The notes: a model not told the origin generated them from the letters alone. A stretch of 64,000 nt of DNA from Chloroflexota bacterium (GCA_014360805.1 JACIWU010000003.1:5020-69019); one strand, 5' to 3'; positions 5,604-64,000 are shown, counted from the first letter of the stretch. Numbers and translations: made by a program.

Positions 5604-5635
5604 TGGCTCTCCTCTCCGTTGCTGTGCGGTCGCGC

Positions 5636-5887
5636 TCACTCGGGCTTGCCGATACGCACGCGCCAGATGTCCGGCCCCTGCTCCAGGTACTCCCAGGTGA
5701 ACTGGCCTGGCCGCTCGTACAGAAAGGCGTAGTGGAGCGGCTTGGGGTCGTGATCGTTCACCAAAACGAACGCCTCGCCGGGTCGCAGGCCGTCAAACGT
5801 GGCGTCAATCAGCGGGTGGCGCTCTGGTGGTGGCACCGCGCGGATGTCCAGTTCGCTGGTGATGAATGGGCGCGTTCTCTGCTCCAT
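5636..5887 (-). CDS. DUF2249-family small protein
   Basis: The 83-aa ORF contains PPPERHPLI...FVLVNDHDPKPL...WEYLEQGPDIWRVRI, a pattern typical of DUF2249, which is often found near hemerythrin and NO-stress genes. Confidence 0.65.
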   Translation of the reverse strand: MEQRTRPFITSELDIRAVPPPERHPLIDATFDGLRPGEAFVLVNDHDPKPLHYAFLYERPGQFTWEYLEQGPDIWRVRIGKPE

Positions 5888-29581: not shown

Positions 29582-29693
29582 AGAGGCCTCCTGAGCAAAC
29601 GAAAGCACGCCGAAGCGTGCGCGCACTTCAATCTACAGACGCACGGCGGGCGCGTCAGGTTCCCGCCGCACAGCCATCCGAGGCATCAGGGCG

Positions 29694-36650: not shown

Positions 36651-39600
36651 TTACTCGGCGCGGTCCTCGGTCGCGCCGCGGGCCGACTCCGCCTCACCGT
36701 TCGGCCTGGACCGAGATTCCAGCGTCTTGCGCACTTCCTCCACCAGGTCTGGGATGGAGAAGGGCTTGGTCATGAAGTTCACGGCGCCCAGGGCCAACGC
36801 CCGCTCGCGCTTCATCTTGTCTTCAGAGATACTGGCCGTCATCACGATCACCGGGATGTCGGCGGTGTTCGGATTCCGCTTCAGTTGCTCCAGCACCGAG
36901 TAGCCGTCCAGCCCGGGCATCTTGAGGTCCAGCAGGATGAGGCCGGGGCGCTCCTTTTCGGCCACGGCCAGCACCTGGCGGCCGTCGGACACGGCCCGCG
37001 CCACGAACCCGTTGCGCTCCAGCACCTCGCGCAGCAGTTTCTGCGTGTCCTCGTTATCATCGCAGATGAGCACCAGGTCGTGGGCGAACAGGATGGAGTG
37101 AACCGTGCTGACGAGCCGCTTCTCGTCCACCGGCTTGCCCAGGTAGTCCACCGCCCCCAAGCGGTAGGCCCGGTCGGGGTCGGGGACGATGGACAGAATC
37201 ACCACGGGGATGTCCGTGGTCTCGGGGTTGGACTTCAGGTCGCTGAGCACCTCAAACCCGTCCTTGCCCGGCAGGCGAACGTCCAGCGTGATGAGGTGCG
37301 GTCTCTCGCGCAGGACGAGGTCCATCACCTCGTCGCCCCGCCCGCAAGTGCTCACCTCGTACCCTTCCTCGCGCAGATGCGTGGCCACCAGGTTCGCGAT
37401 GTCGGGCTCGTCTTCCACCACGAGAATCCGCTTGCCCGCGCCAATGGGCTCGGCTTCTTCCGTAACCTCTTCCCGCGGCGGGAGCGGCTGGTCAAACACG
37501 GCGATGGGCATCGTGAAACTGAACTTGGACCCCTTGCCCAGTTCGCTCTTGAGCCAGATGGTGCCGCCGTGCATCTCCACGAACGACTTGACGATGGCCA
37601 GGCCCAGGCCGGTGCCGCCCGTCTCCTGCACCACCGGATGGTCGGCGCGATAGAAGCGGTCAAAGACCTTCTTCTGGTCCTCGGGCGAGATGCCGATGCC
37701 GGTGTCGGCCACGTCTATCTGCACCTTGTCCGACACGCGGCGCGCCGAGACGGTGATCTTGCCGCCCGCGGGCGTGTAGCGGCACGCGTTGTCCACTAGG
37801 TTGGTCAGAATCTGCGTCAGGCGGTCGCGGTCGGCGTACACCGGCGGCAAGGGCGATTTGACCTTGATGGTAACCGTGAGTTGCTTCTCCTCGGCTTGCT
37901 TGCGCAGCGCGGTTACCACGTCCTGGATGACCTTGGCGGCGTCGGTGGGCTGGCGGTCCAAGCGGATGCGTCCGGTCTCAATCCGCGAGATGTCCAGCAG
38001 GTCGTTGACCAGCGTCGCCAGTCGGTCGGCGTTGGACTTGATGACGGTCAGGAACTTGCGCTGGGCATCCGTAATAGGGCCTGCCGCTTGCATGAACAGG
38101 AGGTCGGTGTAGCCCTTGATGGAAGTCATGGGCGTGCGCAATTCGTGGGACACGGTGGAGATGAATTCGTTCTTGACGCGCTCCGCCTCCACTTCCTTGG
38201 AGATGTCGCGGAACAGCGCCACGGTTCCCAGCAATTCGTCGCCCATCATCACCGGCGCCACGCGCACGCTGGCCACCTTGTTGCCCACGGCGAAACGCTC
38301 TTCCATCTGTGGCCGCTGGCGGGACGCGACGCCGACCCAGCGGCTCACGGCGGCCAGCCCGCGGGCGGCCATCTCGGCCCCCGCCGAAAGCGTGGCCGGC
38401 AGGGCATGCACGTTCTCGTTCATCACCACGTTGCGCGGCACGCCCAGGATGCGCTCGGCGGCGTCGTTGAACAGGATGATGCGCCCGTCGGTGTCGGTAA
38501 CCACCACGCCGTCGGCGATGCCTTCCAGAATGGCGCGGGTCTTGGATGCCTCGGTCTGCTGCATCCGCAGCATGTCGCCCAGGCGGTCCGCCTGCTCCTG
38601 GATGAGGCGATACAGTTCGGCGTTGCCGATGGCCGTGGCGATCTGGGTGGCGGCGGCGGTTACCATCTTCAGGTGGGCCTCGCTGAAATAGTCGGGCCTG
38701 GGGTCGGCCAGCGTCAGCACGCCGAGGATGTCCTCGCCCGCCTGGAGCGGCACCGACAGCGCCGAGCGCACCGTCTCTTCGCCCACCGTGGTCAGCCAGC
38801 GCTTGTCCTTGGTTACGTCGGGCACGATGACCGCCTGGCGGTGCTGGAGCACCCATCCGGCCAGCCCAACCCCCGCGCTGAAGGACCGCGACAGCGACGC
38901 GGCCTGGTCCGCCTGGCCCCGCGTCAGCGAGGCGCGGTGCACCAGTTTGCCCGTCGCCTGATCCAGCAGCAGGATGGACCCCTGCCGCATGCCGATGGAC
39001 TCCTTCAGGAGTTGCAGGGCGCGGCTCATCACGCGGTTCAGGTCCAGCGTCTGGCTCAATTCGCGGGCGATGCGGTACAGCGCCTCGGTGCGGTCGCGCT
39101 CAATCGTGAGTTCCTCGTTGGCCTTCGCCAGTTCGCGCGTGCGCTGCTCCACGCGCTCTTCCAGTTCCAGGTTCAGCCGCGTGATCTCTTGGTACAACTG
39201 GGCGTTGCGGATGGCGCGCGAGGCCTGGTTCACCAGGAAGTTCACGAGCGACACTTCCCGATCGGTGAAGTGATGGGGTTCGGTGGAGCCTGCGAACAGC
39301 ACGCCGATGGTTTGTCCTTCCAGTTGCACCGGCACGCCGAGCATGGACTGCACGCCCAGTTTGCGAATCACCGAACTGACGCGGCTATCCTGCGCTACCT
39401 CGTCTATGACGAGCGGCTTGCCCGATCGCAGGATCTCGGCGGTCAACCCGCGCGCCCTGGGCTTGTGCACCTCAATCTGCTGCGCCATCTCCGGCGGGTC
39501 CGACACGACCTTGAAGACCAGTTCATCCTCGGTCTGGCCCTTGATGTACAGCGTAGCAAGTTGCGTGTGGGTCAGCCGCAGCGCGCTCTGGGCGATGAGC

Positions 39601-42600
39601 GTCAGCACGCGATCCAGTTCCAGAGTCTCGCTGAGGGCCACGCCCAGGTCGTACAGCAGGCGCATCTCCTCGGCGCTCTGGCGCGTCTCCTGGAACAGGC
39701 GCGCGTTCTGCACAGCCGTGGCCACCTGCGCGGCGATGGTTTGCAGCACGTTCAGGTCCTCTTCGGTGTAGGCGCGCGGCTTGATGTAACTCTGCACGGC
39801 GATCACGCCGATGACCTTCTCGCCGACGATCATCGGCACGCCCATCCACGACAGCGCGGGCCTGCCCACGGGCGGGTTGCCCAGGATTTCGGTCGCCGCC
39901 TCCACCACGTTCTCGGGCAGGAACAGCGGCTGTCGCGTGCGGATGATGTGCTCGGTCAGGCTCCGCGTGCCGCGTCGGCTGGCCCAGGTTACGCGCTCGC
40001 CCTCCTCAACCGCCAGCGGGAACGACACCTCATCGTTCTCCTCGTCGTACAGGGCGATGTAGAAGTTGGATGCGTCAATGACCTGGCCAATCTGCCTATA
40101 CGCCTCCTCCAACAGCGCCGGCAGGTCCAGGGTGGAACTGATGGTCTGGCCCATGCGGTTGAGCGCGGCCAGCGAACGAATCCGCCGCTCCGATTCCTCA
40201 AACAGGCGTGCGTTCTCAATGGCCACGGCCAACTGGTCGCCAAGCGTCTGGAGGAGGAACAGGTCGTCGTCGCCGAAAGCGTCCAACTCGTGGCTCTGCA
40301 CGTCCAGCACACCGATGACGCGGTCGCCGATGACCAGGGGCACGGTGCATTCCGACCGCGTGTCGGCCAGGAGCGGATGCGGCACGTAGTAGGGGTCCTT
40401 GGTAACGTCGTTGGCGATGAGCGGCTGGCGGGTGCTGGCGGCGTGGCCGATCATCCCTTCCTGGCCCACCTTCAGCCGCAGCCCTTCTTCGCGTATGGCG
40501 CGCCCCACGGAGCCGTTGCCCGCGCGGTACACGGCCTCTTGCGTGTCGGGGTCAATGAGGAACACGTGCACGTGGTCGTAGTTGAACGTCTCGTGCACCA
40601 GTTCCACCACCTCGGTGAGCAGTTCGTCCAGGCCCAGGATGGAAGCGATGCGGCGGCCCACCTCGCTGGTGGCCTCCAACTGCGTGGCGCGCCTGCGCGT
40701 CTCCTCGTACAGGCGACTGTTCTCAATGGCCACGGCGGTCTGCGCGGCCACCGCCGATAGGATGCGCAAATCCCGCTCGCCGAAGGCATCCAACTGGCTG
40801 CTCTGCGCGTCCAGGACGCCGATGAGCCGATTGCCCACCATCATGGGCACGGCGATCTCCGAACGGGTCTGCGAGTCCTTCTGGATGTAGCGGGAATCCT
40901 GGGTAACGTCGGGCACCACCAGCGGCTGCTTGTTCTCGGCGACCCATCCGGTGATGCCTTCCCGTCCCACCTGGATGCGCAGCCCGCGAACGTCTTCCAT
41001 GTACCCCACGGCGGCGCGCACCACCAGGTCGTCGGTAACCGGGTCCAGGAGCAGGAACGCGCAGTTGTCGTACCCCGCCGACTGCCGGAGCGCGCTCAAC
41101 ACGTCTTCCAGCATCTCTTCGGGGTCCAGCGTGGAGACCAGCCCTCGGCTCACGTCGTACATGGCCGAAATCTCGCGCATGCGCGAGATGACGTTTTCGT
41201 ACAGCATCGCGTTCTCAATGCCGATGGCCGCCTGGTTGGCAAACACCTCCAGCGCCGCGATGTCTTCCGGCTCGGGTCGGCGGCGGCTGATGGGGTCGTC
41301 CAGCGACAGGTAGCCGATGTGCCCCTTACTGCCGGTCAGCGGGACGATGAGGGCGTCGGTGGGCTGCCACTCCTCCGGCTCGCGCGGCCCCAGGTCGGGC
41401 ACGTACACCGGCGCGCCGCTCCCCTCCAGCGTGCCCTTGCCGTCGCCGGTGATGAGATAGGACTGGCTGATGCGATAGCGTTCGTCCAGCAGGCTTTCCA
41501 GCGCGGCGCGCGGGAAGGGCGCCGCCGACACGGGCGCACCGTCGCCGACGCCCGCCGTGGCCACCACGCGCACCAGGGTGGGGTCTTCGCCGTCAATCAG
41601 GTTCAGCGCCACAAGGCGATACCCCATCTGCTTGTGCGCGGCCTCGGTGATCTCGCGGCAAACCTGCTCCAGGCTCATCTCGGCCTTGAGGGCATTGCCG
41701 AAGTTGAGCAGGTTGCTCAGTTGCTCTGCGCGGCGCGCCATCAATCGGCTCTGGGCCAACTGCTTCTCGTACAGTTGCGCGTTCTCAATGGCGATGGCCG
41801 CCTGGTTGGCGAAAATCTCCAGCGCCTCCACGACCGCGCGGGTGGGCACCCGCCCGTCGCGAGGCTCATCCACGCTCAGCAGCCCCAGAATCTCGCCGGA
41901 CGAGGAATGCAGCGGGACGATGAGCATGTCTTCGGGATGCCACCGCCCCTGTTCCCACTCTTCGTCCTCCGGCGCCGGCGGCGTGTACACGTGAAGCCCT
42001 TCCTGCCATTCGTGCGCCTTCTGGTGCGGGAAGAAGTAGGACTGGCTGATGCGGTACTCGTCGCGCATGATGCGGGTGAACCGCTCCAGCGGCTGCCGCA
42101 CGCGCCGCATCTCCTCAAAGACGGCGAGGGGCAACCCCGCCGCCGCAACGCGCCGCAGGTACGGCGGGTCGCCCTCCACGACGCTGAGCAGCGCCAGGTT
42201 GAACCCTGTCGTTTCGGGAATGGCGTACACGATCTGATCCAGCACCTCTTCCAGCGAGAGGTTCATGCGCAGGGCGTTGCCGATTTCCAGCAGGCTGCGC
42301 AACTGCTCGGCGCGACGGCTCAGGCTGCTCCCCAGCCGCACCTGCTCCTGATACCGCCAGGCGTTGCCGATGGCCACGCCCGCCTGGTTGGCCAGCGCCT
42401 CCAGGAACTTGACCGTTTCCTCGTCAAACGCCTGCGCTTCCATGGCGCGCAGGCTGATGACGCCCGCGACCGCCCCCTCGTACAGGATGGGCACCGCCAC
42501 GGCCGACAGCGTGCCCTTGCGGATGCAGACCGGGCGCGTCTCCTTGCGTGCGTCGGCCACGATGATGGACTTCGCCGAGCGTATGGCGTCTTCGGCAACG

Positions 42601-45428
42601 CTGTTCCCGTCGCCCAGGGTCATCCCTTTGAGGATTGCCTCCTCTTCTTCGGAGTACCCCTTGTAGGCAACGACGTGGAACTTGCCGCTCTCCACGTCCA
42701 GCAAGGCGATGTTCCCGTGGGACGCGCGGGTGGCGCGAATCGCCTCGGTGATGACGACCTCCAGGATGCGCTCCAACTCCAGCGTGGCGTTGAGTTCCCG
42801 CGTGATGCGCTGGAGGGCCGTCATCTGGTCCACCTGATGTCGCAGTTGCTCGTCGGTGCGCTGGTACAGCCGCAGGTTCTGGATGCCGGTGGCCAGTTGC
42901 GCGGCGATGGTCGCAAGAAGCCGCTCATCCTCGGCGGAAAAGGCGCCGTCGCGCTTGTTCCCCGCATGGAGTTCGCCCAGCACCACGTCCTGCGTCCGCA
43001 ACGGCACCGACAGCACCGTGCGGAATCCGTACTTGTGGATGAGCGGGCGATAGGCGGGGATGATGCGTTTGTCGTTTGGCGCGTCCGACGACCGGAACGG
43101 GCGTCCCGTGCGGAACACGCCATAGGCGAATTCGGGAAATGTCGCGTCAATGGACAGGGTTTCGGCCTCTTCGGGCGGCAGCCCCACAACGCCGCTGGCG
43201 CGAGCCTCCAGCCGCTCCGTGGTCTCGTTGTACATGAGCAGCGCCATCTTCTCGGCCTTGAGCAGGTCGGCCGCCTTGTGCAGCGTCTGCTGGAGCATCT
43301 GCTCCAGGTCCAGCGTGGAGGTAACGATGCCGGCGATTTGGAACAGGCCGGCCATCTCGTCCACCCTGGCCTGCATCTCTTCGTACAGGCGGGCGTTCTC
43401 AATGGCGACGGCGGCCTGGCCTGCAATCGCCTGCAGGAGGCGCAGGTCTTGCTGCGAGAAGGCGTTGGGGCGCTCCGCCGCCATCTCCAGTGTCCCCACC
43501 AGTTTTGGCCCCTTCATCAGCGGCACGCCCATATAGGAGCGGAAGGGGATTTGCTCCGAATCCAGGCGAGGCCGAACATCGGTGCGCGCCTGCACGTCGG
43601 GGATGAACAGCGGCTTCTGGTTGCGGGTGATCCAGCCGGTGTATCCCTGCTCGGGGGTATAGGTGGCGCCAACCTGGGTCAGGTAGCCGGGTTCGCCTGC
43701 CGCCGCCCACGTAACCATGACACCCTGGTCCTCGTCCCACAGGTTCACTTCGGCCACGTAGTAGTCCAGCAGGCGGCGCGCGCTTTCCAAAATGGTCTGG
43801 AGCGTGGCTTCCAAATCCAGGCTGCCCGAAATGGCCTGGCCCACCTCGTTCAGCAGCGAAATCTCCTGGAAGCGGCGGAGTTCCTGATCGTAGAGGCGCG
43901 CATTCCGCACCGCAACCGCCGCCTGGTTGGCCAGGTTCTCCACAAACGCCAGGTTGTCGGTCGTAAACGCGGCAGGGCGGTTGCTCTCCAGGTTCAGCAC
44001 GCCCAGCACCTGGTTCTCGTAGCGGATGGGCACGGTCAACTGCGAGCGTGTGTCGGGCAGGGCCGGCACGTAGTCGGGGTCCTTGGCTACATCGGGGACG
44101 AGGGCGGGCCTGCCGGTGCGCACCACGCGCATGGTGATGCCACCAGGAGACGGGCGCTGCATGTCCCCTTCGGGCGTGATGAGCGTGGGGTAGTTCCGCT
44201 GCGCCAGGAGTTCCAACCTATCCGTTTCGGGGTCGTACAGGCCCGCCAGCGCCGAGGTCGCGCCCGTGGCCTGGATGGCGCGGCCGATGAGCAAGTCCAA
44301 CACGCGGTGCAAATCCAGCGTGCTGGCCAGTTCGCGCGTGATCTCGCTCATCGCGCCCAGTTCTTCCACGCGCCGCGCCAGCGTCCGGTCGGTGGCCGCG
44401 TACAGTTGCGCGTTGGCCAGCGCCAGCGCCGCCTGGTCGGCAATGGCCTCCAGAAAGTGAACGTCGGCTTCGGTGAACGCCTGGGGCGTCCGCGCCTCCA
44501 GGTTCAGCACGCCCACCACGACGTTGCCCATGCGAATGGGCACCGCGACCTCGGAGCGGGTCTCGGGCACGAGCGCAAAGTAGTCCGCGTCCTGCGACAC
44601 GTCGGCGATCAGCGCCGGCTGCCCCGTCTCGCGCACGCGCCCCACGATGGTCTTCGTGGCCTCAAAATCCAGCGTCTTGTAGGCCATGATCTGGTCGGGC
44701 GTGTAGCCATACGCCTCGCGCAGCGCCAACTTCCCCGTGTTCTCGTCTACCAGGAGCAAGGCCCCGTGGGTCGCGGGCGTGGCGGCCACGGTCTCCTCCA
44801 CGATCATGGGCAGGAGTTTGTCCAGTTCCAGGGTGCTGCTGAGTTGGCGGCTGATGCGCTGCAGGGCGGTCAGTTCGTTCACGCGCCGGCGCGACTGGGC
44901 GAGAATCTCCTGGCTCTCCAGTTGCGCAGCGCGGTCCTGCTCCTCTGATCGCACCAGGTAGCGGACGATGTACCCCAGCGCGTAGTAACTGAACAGGCCG
45001 GTGATCAGGAAGGACCAGCGGATCGGCTCGCCCGCGGGCCAGAGCGGCGGCACGAGGGGCAGCAGGAACGCCACGGCCACGCCCGCGATGAAGGCCGCCA
45101 GCGCCCCGATAGGCAGCCATGCGGCTCCCAGCCCGACCAGGAAGTACGCCAGGATGGAGGCGGGGCTTGTGCGTCCGCCCGTCAGGTAGAAGACCGCAAT
45201 GGAAAATGGCACCTCAACGGCGAGAAGCCCGAGGAGGGCATGACGTTCGCGGAACGCGCGAAGTGCGCGGATGCGAAGCGCCAACAGTTGCGCGGCGAGC
45301 AGCCCCAGAACCCAGAATCCAACCCGGCCCTGATTGGCCAGGGAGGAAATCAGCGCGTACAGCCAGCCGAACCAGTACAGCCAGACAACGACTTGCTGCG
45401 CTCTCAGTCTTCCTCTGGAAATGTTCAT
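36651..45428 (-). CDS. Giant (about 2925 aa) hybrid sensor histidine kinase: N-terminal TM region, about 12 tandem GAF domains, PAS, HisKA, HATPase_c and two receiver domains
   Basis: The GAF-like block L..LL.D recurs about 12 times, for example HGALLLVDENTGKL, HGNIALLDVESGKF and QGSILLLDQATGKL. The H-box is FISTVSHELRTPMTSIKGY. The ATP lid is GTGLGLAIVKSF. The two receivers read RILVVEDEPDIA and LVLICDDNEDTQ. Confidence 0.9.
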   Translation of the reverse strand: MNISRGRLRAQQVVVWLYWFGWLYALISSLANQGRVGFWVLGLLAAQLLALRIRALRAFRERHALLGLLAVEVPFSIAVFYLTGGRTSPASILAYFLVGLGAAWLPIGALAAFIAGVAVAFLLPLVPPLWPAGEPIRWSFLITGLFSYYALGYIVRYLVRSEEQDRAAQLESQEILAQSRRRVNELTALQRISRQLSSTLELDKLLPMIVEETVAATPATHGALLLVDENTGKLALREAYGYTPDQIMAYKTLDFEATKTIVGRVRETGQPALIADVSQDADYFALVPETRSEVAVPIRMGNVVVGVLNLEARTPQAFTEADVHFLEAIADQAALALANAQLYAATDRTLARRVEELGAMSEITRELASTLDLHRVLDLLIGRAIQATGATSALAGLYDPETDRLELLAQRNYPTLITPEGDMQRPSPGGITMRVVRTGRPALVPDVAKDPDYVPALPDTRSQLTVPIRYENQVLGVLNLESNRPAAFTTDNLAFVENLANQAAVAVRNARLYDQELRRFQEISLLNEVGQAISGSLDLEATLQTILESARRLLDYYVAEVNLWDEDQGVMVTWAAAGEPGYLTQVGATYTPEQGYTGWITRNQKPLFIPDVQARTDVRPRLDSEQIPFRSYMGVPLMKGPKLVGTLEMAAERPNAFSQQDLRLLQAIAGQAAVAIENARLYEEMQARVDEMAGLFQIAGIVTSTLDLEQMLQQTLHKAADLLKAEKMALLMYNETTERLEARASGVVGLPPEEAETLSIDATFPEFAYGVFRTGRPFRSSDAPNDKRIIPAYRPLIHKYGFRTVLSVPLRTQDVVLGELHAGNKRDGAFSAEDERLLATIAAQLATGIQNLRLYQRTDEQLRHQVDQMTALQRITRELNATLELERILEVVITEAIRATRASHGNIALLDVESGKFHVVAYKGYSEEEEAILKGMTLGDGNSVAEDAIRSAKSIIVADARKETRPVCIRKGTLSAVAVPILYEGAVAGVISLRAMEAQAFDEETVKFLEALANQAGVAIGNAWRYQEQVRLGSSLSRRAEQLRSLLEIGNALRMNLSLEEVLDQIVYAIPETTGFNLALLSVVEGDPPYLRRVAAAGLPLAVFEEMRRVRQPLERFTRIMRDEYRISQSYFFPHQKAHEWQEGLHVYTPPAPEDEEWEQGRWHPEDMLIVPLHSSSGEILGLLSVDEPRDGRVPTRAVVEALEIFANQAAIAIENAQLYEKQLAQSRLMARRAEQLSNLLNFGNALKAEMSLEQVCREITEAAHKQMGYRLVALNLIDGEDPTLVRVVATAGVGDGAPVSAAPFPRAALESLLDERYRISQSYLITGDGKGTLEGSGAPVYVPDLGPREPEEWQPTDALIVPLTGSKGHIGYLSLDDPISRRRPEPEDIAALEVFANQAAIGIENAMLYENVISRMREISAMYDVSRGLVSTLDPEEMLEDVLSALRQSAGYDNCAFLLLDPVTDDLVVRAAVGYMEDVRGLRIQVGREGITGWVAENKQPLVVPDVTQDSRYIQKDSQTRSEIAVPMMVGNRLIGVLDAQSSQLDAFGERDLRILSAVAAQTAVAIENSRLYEETRRRATQLEATSEVGRRIASILGLDELLTEVVELVHETFNYDHVHVFLIDPDTQEAVYRAGNGSVGRAIREEGLRLKVGQEGMIGHAASTRQPLIANDVTKDPYYVPHPLLADTRSECTVPLVIGDRVIGVLDVQSHELDAFGDDDLFLLQTLGDQLAVAIENARLFEESERRIRSLAALNRMGQTISSTLDLPALLEEAYRQIGQVIDASNFYIALYDEENDEVSFPLAVEEGERVTWASRRGTRSLTEHIIRTRQPLFLPENVVEAATEILGNPPVGRPALSWMGVPMIVGEKVIGVIAVQSYIKPRAYTEEDLNVLQTIAAQVATAVQNARLFQETRQSAEEMRLLYDLGVALSETLELDRVLTLIAQSALRLTHTQLATLYIKGQTEDELVFKVVSDPPEMAQQIEVHKPRARGLTAEILRSGKPLVIDEVAQDSRVSSVIRKLGVQSMLGVPVQLEGQTIGVLFAGSTEPHHFTDREVSLVNFLVNQASRAIRNAQLYQEITRLNLELEERVEQRTRELAKANEELTIERDRTEALYRIARELSQTLDLNRVMSRALQLLKESIGMRQGSILLLDQATGKLVHRASLTRGQADQAASLSRSFSAGVGLAGWVLQHRQAVIVPDVTKDKRWLTTVGEETVRSALSVPLQAGEDILGVLTLADPRPDYFSEAHLKMVTAAATQIATAIGNAELYRLIQEQADRLGDMLRMQQTEASKTRAILEGIADGVVVTDTDGRIILFNDAAERILGVPRNVVMNENVHALPATLSAGAEMAARGLAAVSRWVGVASRQRPQMEERFAVGNKVASVRVAPVMMGDELLGTVALFRDISKEVEAERVKNEFISTVSHELRTPMTSIKGYTDLLFMQAAGPITDAQRKFLTVIKSNADRLATLVNDLLDISRIETGRIRLDRQPTDAAKVIQDVVTALRKQAEEKQLTVTIKVKSPLPPVYADRDRLTQILTNLVDNACRYTPAGGKITVSARRVSDKVQIDVADTGIGISPEDQKKVFDRFYRADHPVVQETGGTGLGLAIVKSFVEMHGGTIWLKSELGKGSKFSFTMPIAVFDQPLPPREEVTEEAEPIGAGKRILVVEDEPDIANLVATHLREEGYEVSTCGRGDEVMDLVLRERPHLITLDVRLPGKDGFEVLSDLKSNPETTDIPVVILSIVPDPDRAYRLGAVDYLGKPVDEKRLVSTVHSILFAHDLVLICDDNEDTQKLLREVLERNGFVARAVSDGRQVLAVAEKERPGLILLDLKMPGLDGYSVLEQLKRNPNTADIPVIVMTASISEDKMKRERALALGAVNFMTKPFSIPDLVEEVRKTLESRSRPNGEAESARGATEDRAE

Positions 45429-45457
45429 ACCCACCAACCCACGCAGATTCCGGGACG

Positions 45458-51059: not shown

Positions 51060-51869
51060 TCAGCTGATGCGGCGAATTTTGTCAATCAAGCGCAAGATCA
51101 CCCCCCGCTTGACCGCGGGCGACGGTGGGATGCCCGGTAGGCCCGGCGCGACTCCCTCGGGCCGCACCAGTTCCACCAGCCCCGCCGTCAGCAGACCATA
51201 CACGATCTTCCGAATCTGAAACTCGCTCAGCCCGATGTACTGCGCGATCTGGCGGATGGTGTTGCGGGGGCTGATGAAGGAGATGACCCGCCACTCTTCC
51301 ACGCTCAGGCTGATGTTCTTGAGGGAAGTCCCCGGCCGGTCCGTGAACTTCAGGGCCACGTCCAGGTCCGGCAACTCGGCCTGCAACTGCTCCCACTCCT
51401 TCATCCGCCGCGTCCCTTCCATGATGACGTTGTCCAGGTCAATGGGAACACCGATCTTTTCCTGAGGGAGCATGCGGTTGGGGTCAAACTGGAATGTCCC
51501 GTCGGTGAGCGCGAAGATGGCATAGACGGTTTCCAGGGACGCCGCCCGAACCACCTGGAGGATGTCCTTCTGGGTTACGTAGTTGTTGTGGAGTAGGAGG
51601 AGCCCGATCTCCTTATCGGTGCGCGTCTCGGCGCGGGAGAGGATGCTTTCCGCCTGCTGGGCGCTCACCTTGCCTGCGCGCTGCAGCAGGGCCAGTAGGC
51701 TTTCATCCTTGCTGTCCTGGTACGCGCCGAGCAACTTACCCTCGCGGAAATACAGCGTGGCCGAAAGGCCATCGCTGCGGACGGAGAGGGCGCCTGTCTT
51801 GCGGGCGATGTGAATCAGGTTCAGCAGTTGGGCGACGCCAAAGTCCTTCAGATTCCCCTTGAGGGCCAT
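51060..51869 (-). CDS. DUF4388/PATAN-domain protein
   Basis: The N-terminus reads MALKGNLKDFGVAQLLNLIHIARKTGALSV...LYFREGKLLGA, which fits DUF4388. It is the first gene downstream of a consensus promoter. Confidence 0.7.
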   Translation of the reverse strand: MALKGNLKDFGVAQLLNLIHIARKTGALSVRSDGLSATLYFREGKLLGAYQDSKDESLLALLQRAGKVSAQQAESILSRAETRTDKEIGLLLLHNNYVTQKDILQVVRAASLETVYAIFALTDGTFQFDPNRMLPQEKIGVPIDLDNVIMEGTRRMKEWEQLQAELPDLDVALKFTDRPGTSLKNISLSVEEWRVISFISPRNTIRQIAQYIGLSEFQIRKIVYGLLTAGLVELVRPEGVAPGLPGIPPSPAVKRGVILRLIDKIRRIS

Positions 51870-51977: not shown

Positions 51978-52197
51978 AATGTGTTCTCCACGGAGTGGTA
52001 ACCGCGAATCACGCGAACCCACACGAATGGAGAGTGCGGACACGTAGGGCGGCTTTCCATAGCCGCCGCAAACAGGGGCAGGTATGGAAACCTGCCCTAC
52101 TAACCGCTATCCACGAATCACACGAACCCACACGAATGGAGAGTGTGGACACGTAGGGCGGCTTTCCATAGCCGCCGCAAACAGAGGGCAGGTATCC
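51978..52197. repeat. Tandem duplication of an intergenic unit of about 108 bp
   Basis: Each unit contains ACGAATCACACGAACCCACACGAATGGAGAGTG(C/T)GGACACGTAGGGCGGCTTTCCATAGCCGCCGCAAACAG(A)GGGCAGGTAT. Each unit has internal hairpins, GGCGGCtttccataGCCGCC and GGGCAGGtatggaaaCCTGCCC. The two units are nearly identical. Confidence 0.75.
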
Positions 52198-52233
52198 AAT
52201 GTGCGACGCACTTCCGGAAGTGCGTCGCACATT
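52198..52233. repeat. REP-like perfect 36-bp palindrome AATGTGCGACGCACTTCC|GGAAGTGCGTCGCACATT
   Basis: The 18-bp arms are exact reverse complements with no loop. It lies at the 3' end of the tandem repeat block. Confidence 0.75.
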
Positions 52234-52274
52234 GGCCGCCGACAGAATGCGAGACGCGGCAACCCCGTCCGCTT

Positions 52275-58867: not shown

Positions 58868-59290
58868 ATGCAGACCTTACCGCAGAAGTGGAGAGGGAGG
58901 GACTCGGCAGGCCCACCGCCGAGCAGCGGCGCGGATATGACCCTGGCCGACCGAAGCCGCGCGTCCCCCGACGCATGGCTGGAGGTGCGCAAGGATGGGC
59001 GCACGACTCGGCATCCCATCCACGGGGACGAGTTCCTCATCGGCCGCGCAGACCACTGCCACCTCATCTTGCAGTCCGAGCGGCGCTATGTCTCCCGCGA
59101 GCACGCGCTCATCCTCAAGGCCAACGGCGTCTATTGGATTAGCGACCTGAGCATCAACGGCACGCGACTCAACGGGAAACGGCTGCTTCGCATGCGGCGC
59201 GAACGGCTGAAGCCCGGCGACATCATCCAGATTGAGGACTGGGAACTCGTCTTCCGCGTGAGCCTGAGCCACTGCGCGGAAGCCCCCTAG
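58868..59290 (+). CDS. FHA-domain protein
   Basis: The FHA core reads FLIGRADHCHLILQSERRYVSREHALI...YWISDLSINGTRLNGKRL. The start is uncertain. I chose M11, which follows a GGAGAGGTGAGG ribosome-binding site. Confidence 0.7.
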   Translation: MQTLPQKWRGRDSAGPPPSSGADMTLADRSRASPDAWLEVRKDGRTTRHPIHGDEFLIGRADHCHLILQSERRYVSREHALILKANGVYWISDLSINGTRLNGKRLLRMRRERLKPGDIIQIEDWELVFRVSLSHCAEAP

Positions 59291-59456
59291 CCGCCCGCGT
59301 CCAGCCGCACACAAAAGCAGGTCCCCAGGCGAGCAGTGCCTGGGGACTTCGCACGCTTTGTCCGGCGTGCAGGCCCGCCCGCGGACGCGCGTCAACCTCA
59401 CGCGCCGCCCGGAACGACGGCCTGTAGCGGAGGATTCGGTTCAGGCGCGCCGGTGT

Positions 59457-59564
59457 CTAGTGCGCGTCCGTCCGCCGACGCTGCAGCATCTGGCCGATGG
59501 CGCCGCCGACGATGGACAGGACTCCGAAGGCTACCAGGGCTACCGGTCCGATGAAGTCGTACAT
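59457..59564 (-). CDS. 35-aa single-TM peptide downstream of the multiheme cytochrome gene
   Basis: This ORF is not in the track. My translation is MYDFIGPVALVAFGVLSIVGGAIGQMLQRRRTDAH. It is preceded by a strong AAAGGAGA ribosome-binding site 7 nt upstream. Confidence 0.4.
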   Translation of the reverse strand: MYDFIGPVALVAFGVLSIVGGAIGQMLQRRRTDAH

Positions 59565-59588
59565 GTCTTATCTCCTTTCACGCGTGAG

Positions 59589-61136
59589 TTAGGGTTTCTT
59601 TCCTGTTGGGTGGCACAGAACACACTTGTTCTGGATATCGGAGATGCCGCGCGCGCTGTGTACCTGCGTCATGCCGTCCGTGGCGTGGCACGTGTCGCAG
59701 TGGTATGTGGTGAAGTCGTTCTTGGGATGGCACAGCACGCACGTCTTGGCCGCCCCGTCGTGGTCCTGCGGGAACAGGTGCGCGGCCTTCGTCGGGGCTT
59801 CCTCGGCCTTGTGGCACAGCAGGCAGAGCATATTCCCCCAGCCTTCGTGCGTCTCGGGGTACGGCTTGATGCCGCCCGGCGCATGGCACATCAGGCAGTC
59901 CTCGCGCCCCTGCGTTGAGTGCAAGATGGGCAACGGTGTTACGCCAGCCGGCTCGTGGCACGTGGTGCACGTGGACTCGGCCCGTCCGGCGTGAGTCGCC
60001 ACGGGGAACTGCGCGATCTTGCCCTCGCCATGGCAGGCCAGGCAGGCCTCGCGCCCCTCCACGGGGTGCAGGATAGCGGGCGACGGCGCCAGGGAATGGC
60101 ACGCCAGACACGTATCGTTTGTGCGGTCCTTGTGATCGGCGGGCAGAGCCATCGCGCCCTGGAGGCCATGGCAGGAGCGGCAGTCCTCGCGCCCCTGCGT
60201 GGGGTGCGGAATGGCGGAAGCGGCGGCCACCAGCGCCTGGGCCGACTGCGCCCAACCCTGCGGCGTGTGACACAGCGCGCAGTTGTCGTTTCCGAACTCG
60301 TGCGGACGCTTGTGGCAGTCGCTGCACACGCCCGACAGGCCCTTGAAGTTGGGCCAGCGGTGGCACGTGAAGCAGTCCGTTGTGGCATGCTTGCCCACCA
60401 GTTGGATGGGGTGCACCTTGAGCGTCGTCTGCTTCCACGTCTCGGTAGACGTGTGGCAGTCGCTGCAACTCAGGGCCTGCGCCACGTCGTGCGGCCCCAC
60501 ATGGCACGTGTCGCAGTCGGTCAGCCGTGCGCCCAGGTTGCGCTCCTTGTGGCAGTTCAAGCAGACACTCATGGAGCAGGTCGTCTGCCCCGTAACCGGA
60601 TCAAAGCCGTGGCCCACCGCCCCGTGGCAGTCGCTGCAATACACCCCGCAGGAAGACCCCTCCCATGCGGCATTGACCACAGCGCCATGAGGCGTGCGGA
60701 GGTTGTCGCCCGGGATTTCGGCGGGCAAATTGCGATGGCACGTCAGGCAGTCGGTCGGGTGCGACTTGGATAGGTCGGCGATGAGATTTTGATGCGCGGC
60801 GTCCTTGGCCGACCGGTTGGGCGTCCCGCCGTGGCACGTGATGCAACCCAGGCGACCGTGGGGCGTATTCAGCGTGGTCGGGTCAATGTAGGCCGACTTG
60901 GCCGTATCCGGCGACTCGGCCGAAGCCGCCAGCGCCTGGGGATCCGTGTGGCACTTGGTGCACTCGGTAGATACCGGAGCCGCATAGTTCACGAAATACA
61001 GCGTGGGCACGGGCGTTGCCTTCGGAGACAGCGCCTGACCCACCGGCTCCGCCAGGAGTCCGGCGATAACGGCCACTACCACGACCGCCAATGAGAGAGG
61101 AATCAGGTACCACTTGGGCCAATGGGATGGGAACAT
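59589..61136 (-). CDS. Membrane-anchored multiheme c-type cytochrome with about 19 CxxCH motifs
   Basis: It has an N-terminal TM helix. I counted 19 CxxCH motifs in 515 aa, including CTKCH, CITCH, CLTCH, CSDCH (three times) and CLNCH. Confidence 0.9.
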   Translation of the reverse strand: MFPSHWPKWYLIPLSLAVVVVAVIAGLLAEPVGQALSPKATPVPTLYFVNYAAPVSTECTKCHTDPQALAASAESPDTAKSAYIDPTTLNTPHGRLGCITCHGGTPNRSAKDAAHQNLIADLSKSHPTDCLTCHRNLPAEIPGDNLRTPHGAVVNAAWEGSSCGVYCSDCHGAVGHGFDPVTGQTTCSMSVCLNCHKERNLGARLTDCDTCHVGPHDVAQALSCSDCHTSTETWKQTTLKVHPIQLVGKHATTDCFTCHRWPNFKGLSGVCSDCHKRPHEFGNDNCALCHTPQGWAQSAQALVAAASAIPHPTQGREDCRSCHGLQGAMALPADHKDRTNDTCLACHSLAPSPAILHPVEGREACLACHGEGKIAQFPVATHAGRAESTCTTCHEPAGVTPLPILHSTQGREDCLMCHAPGGIKPYPETHEGWGNMLCLLCHKAEEAPTKAAHLFPQDHDGAAKTCVLCHPKNDFTTYHCDTCHATDGMTQVHSARGISDIQNKCVLCHPTGKKP

Positions 61137-61156
61137 AGTCCTTACCTCAATTCGCG

Positions 61157-62113
61157 CTATAGGGCCGCCGGTATGCCGGCATAGACAATCATGTAACGCA
61201 GGAGCAGGCCGGCGATGACAATCCCAACGCCGGAGCCAACGCCCGACGTCAGGGAGTGCTGCCCGCGACCGATGGCGTAGGCGTGGACCACAAACGGGAA
61301 CACCAAACCTACCAGCACCACGCCTATCCAGAAGACAACCGCCAGCGGCCCGTACAGCACCAGTTTGGCCGACTCCGCCGCCGCTCCCCCTGCGCTCAAT
61401 GCCGAGATGAACAGCAACCCAATGGCGATATTCTCCAACCCGATCAGGAAGATGTGGCTCAGGTCCATGATGCGGAACCGTCGCTGAATCTCGGGGTCCG
61501 CGATGGTCGCCGAGATGTCAAAGGTGAGGCCCATGCCCGTGGAGACCGCAGAGATCAGGAAGAGGATGGGCAACATGGGAATCCGCACGAACGGAAGCAC
61601 CGGCTGGCTCCACAGGGGGATGGCCGGGCCCACGTCGCTGATGAGCACGCCGGTGTACACGGCCGTGGCCACCGCGAAGACGCCCCCCACCGCCGCCACC
61701 CATCGGCGATACGTGCGGGCGTTGCGCAAGAGCCAGGGCGCTCGCGCCGACACGAATCCTTTGAGGAACGCCTCGGATTCCATCAACTCCAGGAAGCCAT
61801 ACACCAGGGCCAGCGGGATGAAGATGGTCAGAATCCAGATGCCCCACGTCATCACCGAACTGAAGTGGGTGAACATGTAGAAGATACGCCAGGGCTGCAT
61901 GCGCCCCGCGCCCAGGTCAAAGATGAGCAACGCGCTGCCCAGGGCCACCAGCGGGCCGCTCACCGTGGCCCCCACCAGCGCCACGGGGCAGAAGTTGCTC
62001 CTGTAGCGCCAGCCGCTCAGTTCAAAGAACGCCGCCATCAGAAAGGAGCCCGCGCCAAGCCCGCCGAGGAAGAGGTATATGGCGATCAACCAACCCCAGG
62101 CTGTCTGTCCCAT
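61157..62113 (-). CDS. NrfD/PsrC-family integral membrane subunit
   Basis: I placed the start at MGQTAWGWLIAIYLFLGGLGAGSF. The protein has about 8 TM helices. The upstream FeS gene stop and this start form a TGA-G-ATG junction. Confidence 0.75.
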   Translation of the reverse strand: MGQTAWGWLIAIYLFLGGLGAGSFLMAAFFELSGWRYRSNFCPVALVGATVSGPLVALGSALLIFDLGAGRMQPWRIFYMFTHFSSVMTWGIWILTIFIPLALVYGFLELMESEAFLKGFVSARAPWLLRNARTYRRWVAAVGGVFAVATAVYTGVLISDVGPAIPLWSQPVLPFVRIPMLPILFLISAVSTGMGLTFDISATIADPEIQRRFRIMDLSHIFLIGLENIAIGLLFISALSAGGAAAESAKLVLYGPLAVVFWIGVVLVGLVFPFVVHAYAIGRGQHSLTSGVGSGVGIVIAGLLLRYMIVYAGIPAAL

Positions 62114-62114
62114 C

Positions 62115-62789
62115 TCACTCCCCCTCAATGATGTAATGCAGGACCGCCGGATGGGTACCGAACTCCGGGTGCAGCGGCTTAGCCTTGCCCGACGCCACCA
62201 GTTGGGCCACCTCGCTGTTCGGGTCGTCCAGCCTGCCGAAGATGCGCGCGCCGAGAACACACGACTGCACGCAGGCCGGATCCTTGCCCTCGCTCACCCA
62301 GTCCAGGCACAGCCAGCACTTGTCCACCACGCCCCGCTCCTCGTCAAAGGTGCGCGCCTGATAGGGACATGCCACCTCGCAGTATTTGCACCCCACGCAC
62401 AGTTTCTCGTTGATGAGCACCACGCCGCTCTCGTGGCGATACGTGGCCCGCGTGGGGCACACACGCGCGCAGGGGGCATCGGCACAGTGTTGGCACTGGA
62501 CCGGGAGGAACCACTGGCGGCCTCTGTCATCCTTCGGCACGATGTGAACGTAACTCTTGCCCTCGGGGAGGTTGTTGCGGATGTTGCAGGCATGGACGCA
62601 CGCGCCGCAGCCCACGCACTTGGTGGTGTCAATGATGAGGGCATAGCGGGCTTTCGGCGCGTCGGTGCGGGCCAGGGCCGTCTGCGCGGCGGGGGCCAGA
62701 CCGACCCCCACTCCGCCCGCAGCCGCCACCGCGCCTGTCCCCAGGAGGTATCTCAGAAACGTCCTTCGGGAGAGTTTTGTATCTGACAT
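62115..62789 (-). CDS. Tat-exported 4x[4Fe-4S] ferredoxin-type subunit (NrfC/PsrB/DmsB-like)
   Basis: The twin-arginine signal is SRRTFLRYLLGTGAVAAAGG. Four Cys clusters are present: CVGCGACVHAC, CQHCADAPCARVCP, CVGCKYCEVACP and CWLC...C. Confidence 0.85.
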   Translation of the reverse strand: MSDTKLSRRTFLRYLLGTGAVAAAGGVGVGLAPAAQTALARTDAPKARYALIIDTTKCVGCGACVHACNIRNNLPEGKSYVHIVPKDDRGRQWFLPVQCQHCADAPCARVCPTRATYRHESGVVLINEKLCVGCKYCEVACPYQARTFDEERGVVDKCWLCLDWVSEGKDPACVQSCVLGARIFGRLDDPNSEVAQLVASGKAKPLHPEFGTHPAVLHYIIEGE

Positions 62790-62820
62790 CGGAATTCTCC
62801 TCAGCGTAGCACACCAGGTC

Positions 62821-62847
62821 TATAGTTATAGTCCACTATAACTATGC
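62821..62847. promoter_or_regulatory. AT-rich 12-4-12 palindrome CTATAGTTATAG-tcca-CTATAACTATg, a putative repressor operator overlapping the transcription start
   Basis: It is an 11/12 inverted repeat immediately downstream of the -10 box at 62851. It is unique in the window and is AT-rich in a 65% GC background. Confidence 0.5.
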
Positions 62848-62850
62848 ACA

Positions 62851-62879
62851 TTATAACACGGTTTTTGGCCGTTGTCAAG
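62851..62879 (-). promoter_or_regulatory. Consensus promoter (TTGACA-17-TATAAT) for the FeS/NrfD/multiheme cytochrome operon
   Basis: The minus strand reads cTTGACAacggccaaaaaccgtgtTATAATgtg. Confidence 0.55.
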
Positions 62880-63097
62880 ATTTCAGGACGAATTTCACAA
62901 AGTCTCTTTATCCATTCCGGGCCGCTTGTCCTCACTCATCCTAACGCCAGCCCCCTTCCGAGCACGGTCGGCTCTACGGTATCCGTACGTGGCCCGAATG
63001 TCCACCTCAACCATCCCCTCCTCAGCCCTCCCCTTCTCTCCGCCGGCGTAGAGGGAAGGGGAGGGTGCGGGAGGGGTTGGGTGAGGTCAAAAGCCCC

Positions 63098-63136
63098 GCG
63101 ACGGTGAAGACCCCAAGGGTCTCCGGGACCCTTGGG
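63098..63136. terminator. Perfect 15-bp-arm stem-loop AAGACCCCAAGGGTC-tccgg-GACCCTTGGGGTCTT between the SPFH gene and the FeS operon promoter
   Basis: I checked the reverse complement and the arms match exactly. It is followed by TTTGCG. Confidence 0.5.
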
Positions 63137-63225
63137 GTCTTTGCGTTGCCCCCACAGGGCGAGCAGGCCCGCGCGTCGCGCCACCCGCGAGCGGGACGCG
63201 CCCCGCCATGCCCGCCGCAGAACCG

Positions 63226-64000
63226 TCAGGAATTCGTCTCGTCCTTGGCGGCCTTCTCGCCCAGCGCGCTCAGGCCCGCAATCGTCCCTACATCGCGCAT
63301 CTCATCATAGGGCACTACCACCAGCGAGCCGCGCTCTTTCACGCCCTCCATGATCATGTTGAGCGTGCGCAGGCGAAAGGCCATCGGGTGATCCTCGTAC
63401 TGGCGGGCGGCTTCCAGAAAACTCTGGGCGATCTGCTGTTCGGCCTGGCCCAGGATGATCCGCGCCTGGCGCTCGCGTTCGGCCTGCGCCTGCCGCGACA
63501 TGGCGTCCTCCAGCGCCTCGGGGATCACGACATCCCGAATCTCCACCGACTCCACGGTAATGCCCCAGGGCGTCGTGCGGTGGTCTATGATCTGCTGCAA
63601 CTCGGCGTCTATCTTCTCGCGCCCGACCAGGATGTCGGCCAAATCCATCTTGCCGATGATGTCGCGCAGGGCCGTCTGCGCGGCCCAGGCGATGGCCATG
63701 CGATAGTTCTTCACCTCCAACGCCGCCTTCGTGGCATCCCACACTACCCAGAAGAGCACCGCGTCCACGTTTACGGGCACGGTGTCGCGGGTGAGCGTCT
63801 TCTCGGCGCCGAAGGGCGTTACCATCATCCGATGATCCACCCAGGCGGCGATGCGGTCCACCAGCGGGATGACCCAGAAGGAGCCAGGCCCGGCCACGCG
63901 GTGGAACTTGCCGAGCCGCAGGATCACCGCCCGCTCCCAGTGCTGCGCCACCTTGAACCCGAAGAGCAGGCCCACCGCCGCAAGGTACAGGGGAATCCCC
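63226..64000 (-). CDS. SPFH/band-7 (stomatin/HflK/C-like) membrane protein. The N-terminus lies beyond the window end.
   Basis: It contains a coiled-coil segment AQAERERQARIILGQAEQQIAQ. The translation continues upstream past 64000 into a TM helix. Confidence 0.8.
   Translation of the reverse strand, partial: GIPLYLAAVGLLFGFKVAQHWERAVILRLGKFHRVAGPGSFWVIPLVDRIAAWVDHRMMVTPFGAEKTLTRDTVPVNVDAVLFWVVWDATKAALEVKNYRMAIAWAAQTALRDIIGKMDLADILVGREKIDAELQQIIDHRTTPWGITVESVEIRDVVIPEALEDAMSRQAQAERERQARIILGQAEQQIAQSFLEAARQYEDHPMAFRLRTLNMIMEGVKERGSLVVVPYDEMRDVGTIAGLSALGEKAAKDETNS

Follow-up and report, generated by a model that had tools for sequence, protein, structure and literature searches.

The Anaerolineae are plentiful in sediments, in the subsurface and in wastewater sludge, and how electrons exit their quinone pool has to our knowledge not been worked out. 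A stretch of 64,000 nucleotides (nt) from a Chloroflexota bacterium (GCA_014360805.1, JACIWU010000003.1:5020-69019; about 65% G+C, here called the window) raises this question in a concrete form: does its operon for an iron-sulfur (FeS) protein, an NrfD-type membrane subunit, a cytochrome with 19 heme motifs and a peptide of 35 amino acids (aa) encode such an exit? The source lineage is uncultured Anaerolineae, known from metagenome-assembled genomes (MAGs), and a literature search found no paper describing this operon. On the evidence below, the probable answer, given with some reserve, is that the four genes specify a four-subunit membrane complex linking the quinone pool to a c-type heme chain on the outer face of the cytoplasmic membrane. 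The operon is most likely an Anaerolineae-specific, uncharacterised variant of an already recognised type of respiratory module. Related loci are designated below by L numbers and related proteins by P numbers.

The operon and its products

Four tightly packed open reading frames (ORFs) occupy the minus strand from 62789 to 59457, in this order:

62115..62789, minus strand: NrfC/PsrB-type ferredoxin of 224 aa, predicted to be Tat-exported, with SRRTFL and 16 cysteines in four [4Fe-4S] motifs
61157..62113, minus strand: NrfD/PsrC-type integral membrane subunit of 318 aa with 8 helices, Pfam PF03916
59589..61136, minus strand: cytochrome c of 515 aa, with 19 heme motifs (CxxCH count and family alignment) and a single membrane helix at the N terminus
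59457..59564, minus strand: single-helix peptide of 35 aa with a basic tail (RRR), likely a small subunit, with a conserved ribosome-binding site (RBS) and third-position bias

When ORFs, motifs and junctions were derived again from the window, they reproduced the coordinates, gene descriptions, gene order and coupling given in the original prediction, which a model had made from the sequence. The FeS and NrfD genes meet in a TGA-G-ATG junction, with the NrfD ATG one base past the FeS stop codon; 20 nt separate NrfD from the cytochrome and 24 nt the cytochrome stop codon from the peptide, and all four gene starts have Shine-Dalgarno-like sequences. A longer NrfD ORF of 367 aa with a GTG start was rejected, as the ATG start is conserved and is served by a Shine-Dalgarno sequence. 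With a promoter and a terminator bounding the two ends, the four genes are predicted to form one transcription unit.

The N terminus of the FeS protein carries the twin-arginine motif SRRTFL, and its cysteines fall into four cluster motifs, C58-x2-C-x2-C-x3-C, C99-x2-C-x4-C-x3-C, C131-x2-C-x2-C-x3-C and C158-x2-C-x11-C-x3-C. Only Fer4 domains are found (Fer4_11, E 1.3e-24). The nearest solved chain is PsrB (2vpw_B, E 2.7e-37), with ArrB also close. The best NCBIfam score is against DsrO (180.2, cut-off 200), and the scores against TtrB (168, cut-off 416), NrfC (TIGR03149; 167.7, cut-off 377.6), HmcB (107.8, cut-off 420) and QrcC (91, cut-off 400) likewise fall short, as do those against ArrB and DmsB.

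The membrane subunit matches PF03916 with 122.5 bits (cut-off 25.8) over profile positions 8-309 of 313. Eight hydrophobic segments are evident in its sequence, and an AlphaFold model based on database homologues has eight long helices (pLDDT 77.5, pTM 0.78). The top Foldseek matches of this model are ActC chains (TMq 0.67-0.73; 8k9e_C 0.73), and PsrC is also matched (2vpw_C, TMt 0.65), so that the subunit is modelled with the ActC/PsrC fold. Eight is the number of helices in NrfD proteins of the NrfD/PsrC type (PMC8076601). The score against the NrfD equivalog (TIGR03148) is 81.7, with a cut-off of 347.6. Because every NCBI curated equivalog cut-off is missed, the FeS and NrfD subunits are assigned by their scores to the NrfC/NrfD class, outside every named system.

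The cytochrome, the only ORF in the 64-kb window with at least two CxxCH motifs, has exactly 19 of them. It has no CxxCK, no longer-spaced variant and no CX15CH motif of the catalytic type. All 19 motifs are invariant across 22 homologues at identities down to 40%. Further, 18 histidines outside the motifs are at least 95% conserved in the alignment and Met189 is invariant, which together provide 19 candidate distal ligands for 19 hemes. A single hydrophobic helix lies at residues 11-29, within a helix (8-36) that AlphaFold models with confidence.

Homologues of the cytochrome come only from Anaerolineae/Chloroflexota MAGs, and four genomes (L003-L006) carry copies that are 91-93% identical. 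In a scan of 1.84 billion representative proteins, 62 clusters were found at E <= 1e-30, and the full-length match was to essentially one other 50%-identity cluster; the 19-heme architecture therefore appears narrow in distribution, its modules widely shared. Among the relatives there are length classes of 10, 13 and 19 hemes that have in common an N-terminal core of about 300 residues and 10 hemes; the 9 C-terminal hemes of the present protein are arranged as repeated diheme units. The family profile matches MtrA (6r2q_A, E 3e-11) over the C-terminal half (residues 253-443), HmcA locally (E 1e-7) and ActA weakly and locally (E 0.009). In some relatives NrfD and cytochrome are fused (P0084, P0090, P0091 and P0118, the last at L027:10001-12646; 740-881 aa). 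In a further protein, P0119 (511 aa), the 9-heme C-terminal module is found again, at 65% identity, but attached to a b-type membrane cytochrome domain (PF01292), as would fit a heme wire suited to more than one kind of quinol-oxidising base.

All related loci whose sequence extends far enough, more than 20 in all (L003-L021, L025-L032), retain the order FeS protein, NrfD, cytochrome, and the three core genes probably work together.

The 35-aa peptide as a likely fourth subunit

In the peptide a hydrophobic helix leads into the tail RRRTDAH. Its ATG is preceded, at a distance of 7 nt, by AAGGAG, and the AGGAG box is conserved among close relatives. Between the window and L003 the peptide gene differs at 4, 3 and 11 sites in codon positions 1, 2 and 3, and codon changes are synonymous to non-synonymous in the ratio 10:5 (10:3 between the window and L006); directly past the stop codon the alignment collapses. 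The third-position substitution bias and the conserved RBS argue that the ORF is coding, and for the same two reasons a non-coding terminator or leader element was rejected. The pattern of change marks the peptide as a real conserved gene under purifying selection. The original description of a transmembrane peptide with a strong RBS is borne out and extended by its conservation; its description as unannotated does not hold everywhere, as the exact 35-aa sequence is called as a gene for a 'hypothetical protein' on 12 public contigs.

Direct inspection of ORFs in related loci, together with an exact cluster look-up, located homologues at the same position in L003-L006, L008, L015, L010, L011, L025, L028 and L030. 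The version in L008, where the cytochrome is 66% identical, has 40 aa, and that in L015 has 35. Longer versions of 54-77 aa follow the cytochrome in L010, L011, L025, L028 and L030, with an N-terminal signal peptide and the same C-terminal helix and basic tail. The shared core reads roughly P-x-A-x3-FG-x-L-x-L-x-GG-x2-G and is followed by a basic patch. It is rich in glycine, like helix-packing motifs, and the implied topology has the N terminus outside and the tail inside. NhcD, the extra subunit of the Desulfovibrio Nhc complex (PMC8076601), offers a functional precedent by analogy.

Proposed electron path and what weighs against it

The original prediction of a quinol:multiheme conduit is supported as the best reading: an NrfC/NrfD module would be joined to an anchored cytochrome with no molybdopterin subunit, a reading to which homology, architecture, synteny, the fusions, the ActC/PsrC fold and the PsrB match all contribute. 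The companion suggestion of a module like alternative complex III is not supported, as discussed below. Because the FeS protein has a Tat signal and the cytochrome a signal-anchor helix, both are predicted to lie on the outer face of the membrane. NrfD-type subunits lack cofactors and bind quinol near the outer face beside the last FeS cluster, and PsrB sits on PsrC beside the menaquinone site (PMC8076601). In the proposed complex, the cofactor-less eight-helix NrfD would bind quinol near the outer membrane face and pass electrons through the four [4Fe-4S] clusters of the exported ferredoxin docked on it. The cytochrome, which its own N-terminal helix would tether to the membrane, would then take them up at its conserved N-terminal core of 10 hemes, and they would leave along the C-terminal, MtrA-like extension of 9 hemes to an acceptor outside the membrane, for which another cytochrome, a mineral or a soluble oxidant are candidates. 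The same parts could also carry electrons the other way, to quinone from a donor outside. As for the 35-aa peptide, it would most likely be a single-helix structural subunit, its N terminus outside and its basic tail inside, packing against the membrane part. Physical assembly, quinol as the substrate, the direction of flow and the identity of the partner are all deduced.

Several observations weigh against this proposal. Neither a partner cytochrome nor a terminal reductase was found within the 64-kb window. The AlphaFold model of the cytochrome, from a 22-sequence alignment, is poor (pLDDT 43.8), so that any reach of the heme chain into or across the wall is something we infer. The quinone-site residues of PsrC and ActC could not be mapped onto NrfD, as neither the protein nor two family profiles gave a sequence match to any chain of the Protein Data Bank (PDB), even at E = 10. 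The hallmarks of NrfD/PsrC proteins are a serine in the quinone pocket and an acidic or histidine residue in helix 2 (PMC8076601); S86 is invariant and D66 nearly so, both at positions that are plausible by their place in the protein rather than by residue-level alignment to PsrC or ActC. Immediately 3' of the cytochrome gene, L007, L009, L029, L031 and L032 have no peptide ORF, and the peptide is therefore not essential to the core complex; missing from about half of the lineages, it appears to be a frequent accessory subunit rather than a core one. Lastly, rhodanese genes are common at related loci and hint at a soluble sulfur compound, not minerals, as the acceptor.

Comparison with known systems and alternative explanations

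Close parallels in gene content are with proposed quinone:cytochrome c oxidoreductases. Cbc4 of Geobacter sulfurreducens (CbcSTU; GSU0068-0070) combines an anchored multiheme cytochrome, a four-[4Fe-4S] protein and an integral membrane subunit; the role proposed for it is that of a quinone:cytochrome c oxidoreductase in extracellular electron transfer (bioRxiv 10.1101/2025.04.14.648717). Its CbcS, however, is a tetraheme protein of the NapC/NirT type (bioRxiv 10.1101/2025.04.14.648717), whereas the cytochrome here has 19 hemes and, as its sole match to a model of the NapC/NirT class, a sub-threshold one to NrfH (18.9 bits, cut-off 134.2), which sets the operon apart from Cbc4; the gene order also differs and a small fourth subunit is added, with CbcT and CbcU being compared by description only. 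Likewise by description, clusters of NrfD, a 4Fe-4S ferredoxin and a multiheme cytochrome in Methanoperedenaceae share the gene content and the proposed role. These have been called menaquinone:cytochrome c oxidoreductases, with NrfD subunits reported to group with sequences of Chloroflexi (Dehalococcoidales) (PMC7327174), and one cluster is expressed on electrodes (PMC10874420). Unlike the present operon they are archaeal, have cytochromes of 6-7 hemes and include other extra genes.

Quinol dehydrogenases of the NrfC/NrfD type that feed periplasmic multiheme cytochromes, Shewanella SirCD and Escherichia coli NrfBCD, are a further likeness, and SirCD can, as cited in PMC11434368, replace CymA. 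In contrast to these, the NrfC and NrfD equivalog scores lie far under their cut-offs here, the cytochrome is anchored and much longer, and the operon has no catalytic cytochrome of the NrfA or SirA type. An E. coli-type NrfABCD nitrite reductase was rejected on the NrfC and NrfD scores, the absence of CxxCK and the absence of another multiheme ORF in the window. The heme extension recalls the decaheme wires MtrA and DmsE, with repeated diheme units and a local match of the C-terminal half to MtrA and the DmsE model, but the score against the MtrA/DmsE family (TIGR03508) is 52.9 against a cut-off of 192.2 and there is no MtrB-type porin.

The foremost alternative, which we consider unlikely, is that the same complex runs inward as a cytochrome:quinone oxidoreductase, with an external or periplasmic donor reducing the quinone pool, as has been proposed for Nhc and Qrc; Fe(II), reduced shuttles, a hydrogenase acting via cytochromes or a cathode-like partner could serve as donor. 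The likeness to the Desulfovibrio NhcABCD and HmcABCDEF systems, which have a 9- or 16-heme cytochrome, a four-cluster FeS protein, an NrfD-like subunit and, in Nhc, the extra NhcD (PMC8076601), bears directly on this reading: Nhc and Qrc are listed as TpIc3:quinone oxidoreductases of the same FeS, NrfD and multiheme make-up (PMC8076601), and Nhc is thought to run towards quinone. Heme chains, moreover, are generally reversible (PMC7198977), and the 13-heme relative in L032 adjoins a group-1-type [NiFe] hydrogenase operon. The resemblance is nonetheless incomplete. The eight helices agree with quinol-oxidising NrfD/PsrC and not with the 10 of NhcC and QrcD (PMC8076601), and no donor-side enzyme is near the operon in the window. 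The Nhc and Hmc cytochromes are soluble and of the c3 type, whereas this one is membrane-anchored; the low HmcB score, the eight-helix NrfD and the local nature of the HmcA match place the operon outside the Hmc/Nhc group. The sequence itself fixes neither direction. NhcD is small and hydrophobic, and Hmc has the similar HmcD.

A sulfur-compound reductase, of which this module would be the quinol-dehydrogenase arm, is decidedly unlikely. On the model of MccACD or SirACD, polysulfide, thiosulfate, tetrathionate or sulfite would be reduced at a heme, either in this cytochrome or in a partner multiheme cytochrome whose gene lies elsewhere. Many related loci do have an accessory module beside the triad, comprising an exported and often tandem rhodanese, a lipoprotein-like monoheme protein (114-152 aa, its linker rich in Pro and Thr) and a cytochrome of about 362 aa with 9-10 hemes, usually with a divergent PadR/PatA_N regulator. 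Genes of this kind flank the triad in L007, L010, L011, L025, L027, L030 and probably L032, and the module has been delimited at five loci:

L025:2195-5117, accessory module
L027:12771-15614, accessory module
L030:6410-9140, accessory module
L007:9669-12700, accessory module
L010:3485-6061, accessory module

The FeS protein, too, scores best against DsrO (180 bits) and near that against TtrB, and with 18 conserved distal histidines for 19 hemes one heme may differ. The window, however, has neither a rhodanese nor a second multiheme cytochrome, and a tBLASTn search of it with the rhodanese and accessory cytochrome genes of related loci matched only the 19-heme gene itself. The cytochrome lacks catalytic-type motifs, and the invariant Met189 can supply the nineteenth ligand. 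DsrMKJOP was rejected as the DsrO cut-off is missed and genes of the DsrM, DsrK and DsrJ types are absent from the operon. As a separate observation, the C terminus of the exported rhodanese at L025:3760-4854 (...MPETGG..., a hydrophobic helix, RQRK) resembles a sortase-type cell-wall sorting signal.

It is highly improbable that the operon belongs to a conventional CISM-type molybdoenzyme (Psr/Ttr/Dms-like) with its catalytic subunit elsewhere, or to alternative complex III, given that, for all the homology of the two membrane-module subunits to PsrB/PsrC and ActB2/ActC, neither the operon nor its immediate surroundings contain a molybdopterin gene, whether in the window or among the close relatives, the position of the catalytic partner is always taken by a multiheme cytochrome, sometimes fused to NrfD, and the ActB1 domain, ActF, ActD/E and a 10-helix ActC are missing. 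The absence of a molybdopterin subunit from the operon had been claimed originally, with such a gene immediately beyond it named as the decisive objection. No such gene is found there: the window has Band_7/SPFH as the upstream neighbour and, downstream, a convergent FHA-domain gene with ABC-F ATPase, CoaE and ProRS genes, while the 6.3 kb upstream in L005 (93% identical) hold a 141-aa GntR-family gene, Band_7 and a protease. The order GntR, Band_7, FeS protein, NrfD, cytochrome recurs in loci that are 65-66% identical, and the flanks of close relatives are likewise free of molybdopterin subunits. CISM molybdoenzymes (Psr/Ttr/Dms/Arr) were rejected as the Mo-bisPGD subunit is absent and TtrB, ArrB and DmsB score under their cut-offs. 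What this reading can cite in addition is a distant branch, about 52% identical to the window, in which a second Tat-type FeS protein follows the cytochrome (L031 and probably L009; L031:2419-6250, L009:9574-10386). To this L031 adds an AOR-family (tungsto/molybdo)pterin enzyme and a YdhW_C-domain protein, in a gene order similar to that of E. coli ydhYVWXUT.

With alternative complex III the likeness consists in the superposition of the NrfD model, best on ActC (TMq 0.73), and in the multiheme ActA, a weak and local profile match; ActA, too, has an N-terminal membrane helix. The complex was rejected in view of the FeS protein of 224 aa with Fer4 domains alone, the single NrfD with 8 helices against the 10 of ActC, and the 19 hemes against the five of ActA. 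What also speaks against the originally suggested module of this kind is the lack of a molybdopterin-like ActB domain, of ActF, ActD and ActE, and of a second NrfD-like subunit.

Regulation of the operon

The ends of the operon are marked by three features:

62850..62878, minus strand: sigma-70-type promoter, TTGACA, 17-nt spacer, TATAAT, the -10 box extended by TG; all 12 consensus positions matched
62822..62845, minus strand: palindromic operator-like site ATAGTTATAG-N4-CTATAACTAT, perfect and directly past the -10 box
59311..59347, minus strand: intrinsic-terminator-like hairpin of 10 pairs (8 G-C) followed by the T tract CTGCTTTTGT, 110 nt 3' of the peptide stop codon

The promoter is the only promoter-like site in 59200-63300 and is conserved in L003-L006, L008, L009 and L025. 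Within the palindrome the arms are conserved and the 4-nt spacer is variable among the window, L003-L006, L008, L009 and L025/L026; each locus has a single copy, located without exception between the -10 box and the start of the FeS gene, and the site is present in all loci with GntR and Band_7 neighbours. Such a pattern suggests the signature of a repressor operator, for which the adjacent 141-aa GntR-family gene is a candidate regulator. In the proposed complex, expression would probably be gated by a repressor at this palindrome, which overlaps the transcription start.

Lineages with a divergent PadR/PatA_N gene carry instead the palindrome ACTCAG-N2-4-CTGAGT. This site adjoins the PadR/PatA_N genes at L007:6314, L025:5019, L026:1939 and L027:8982 and appears to be an alternative operator. 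In the window a stand-alone DUF4388/PatA_N-domain protein is encoded about 7.6 kb from the operon (51060-51869, minus strand); in the operon-adjacent regulators of other lineages the PatA_N domain is fused to PadR. Between Band_7 and the FeS gene lie an inverted repeat of 37 nt that is imperfect (81% complementary) and a perfect hairpin of 15 nt (63004-63087 and 63107-63141); they could represent either a small repeat element or the terminator belonging to the gene upstream.

Other features of the window

A scan of the whole window gave neither a tRNA nor a match to an Rfam family. The gene at 36651-45437 (minus strand) specifies a hybrid histidine kinase of 2928 aa in which about 11-12 GAF domains in tandem are combined with a PAS domain, HisKA/HATPase and two receiver domains; that at 23729-29626 (minus strand) specifies a protein of 1965 aa that resembles bacterial alpha-2-macroglobulins and has Big_5, MG, bait-region and TED domains. 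A 677-aa protein of the Prismane/CO-dehydrogenase family (3606-5639, minus strand) is encoded near a homologue of heme-copper oxidase subunit I (COX1) of 548 aa (6691-8337, minus strand); the organism is likely to possess a terminal enzyme for the reduction of oxygen or NO as well. The intergenic region before ProRS (51999-52235) has two 80-nt direct repeats, 94% identical and 109 nt apart, followed by a perfect 40-nt palindrome at 52196-52235. In L005 an intergenic region at about 3807-4214 has ORFs that read as internally repeated.

Implications

No current idea is overturned by this operon, its architecture having already been recognised in Geobacter, Desulfovibrio, Shewanella and Methanoperedens. 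Tentatively, and as something possible rather than probable, the operon may give envelopes that lack an outer membrane a self-contained, single-membrane outlet for electrons, in which an NrfCD quinol dehydrogenase carries a tethered 19-heme wire. Ardenticatena, a cultured iron reducer of the Chloroflexota, is reported to be presumably monoderm (PMC5808234), and the 10 hemes of MtrA span about 80 A (PMC7198977). If the outlet is real and its wire is linear like MtrA, the reach would be about 15 nm and could span the Anaerolineae cell wall with no further carriers. In that case the length classes (10, 13, 19 or more hemes) would be adapted to how thick the envelope is, a single-helix subunit and a repressor, both dedicated, would complete the system, and the whole would constitute a Chloroflexota-specific extracellular electron transfer distinct from Mtr, Pcc and the Gram-positive flavin routes.

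More broadly, the Anaerolineae are rich in multiheme cytochromes (bioRxiv 10.1101/2021.08.23.457424), and the operon is a compact and widely conserved candidate for the exit from their quinone pool, with three or four genes, one promoter and one operator. Further, the modular family to which it belongs, with its 10-, 13- and 19-heme members, NrfD fusions and a b-type cytochrome bearing the 9-heme tail, would provide a natural series for understanding how heme wires are lengthened and attached to different bases.

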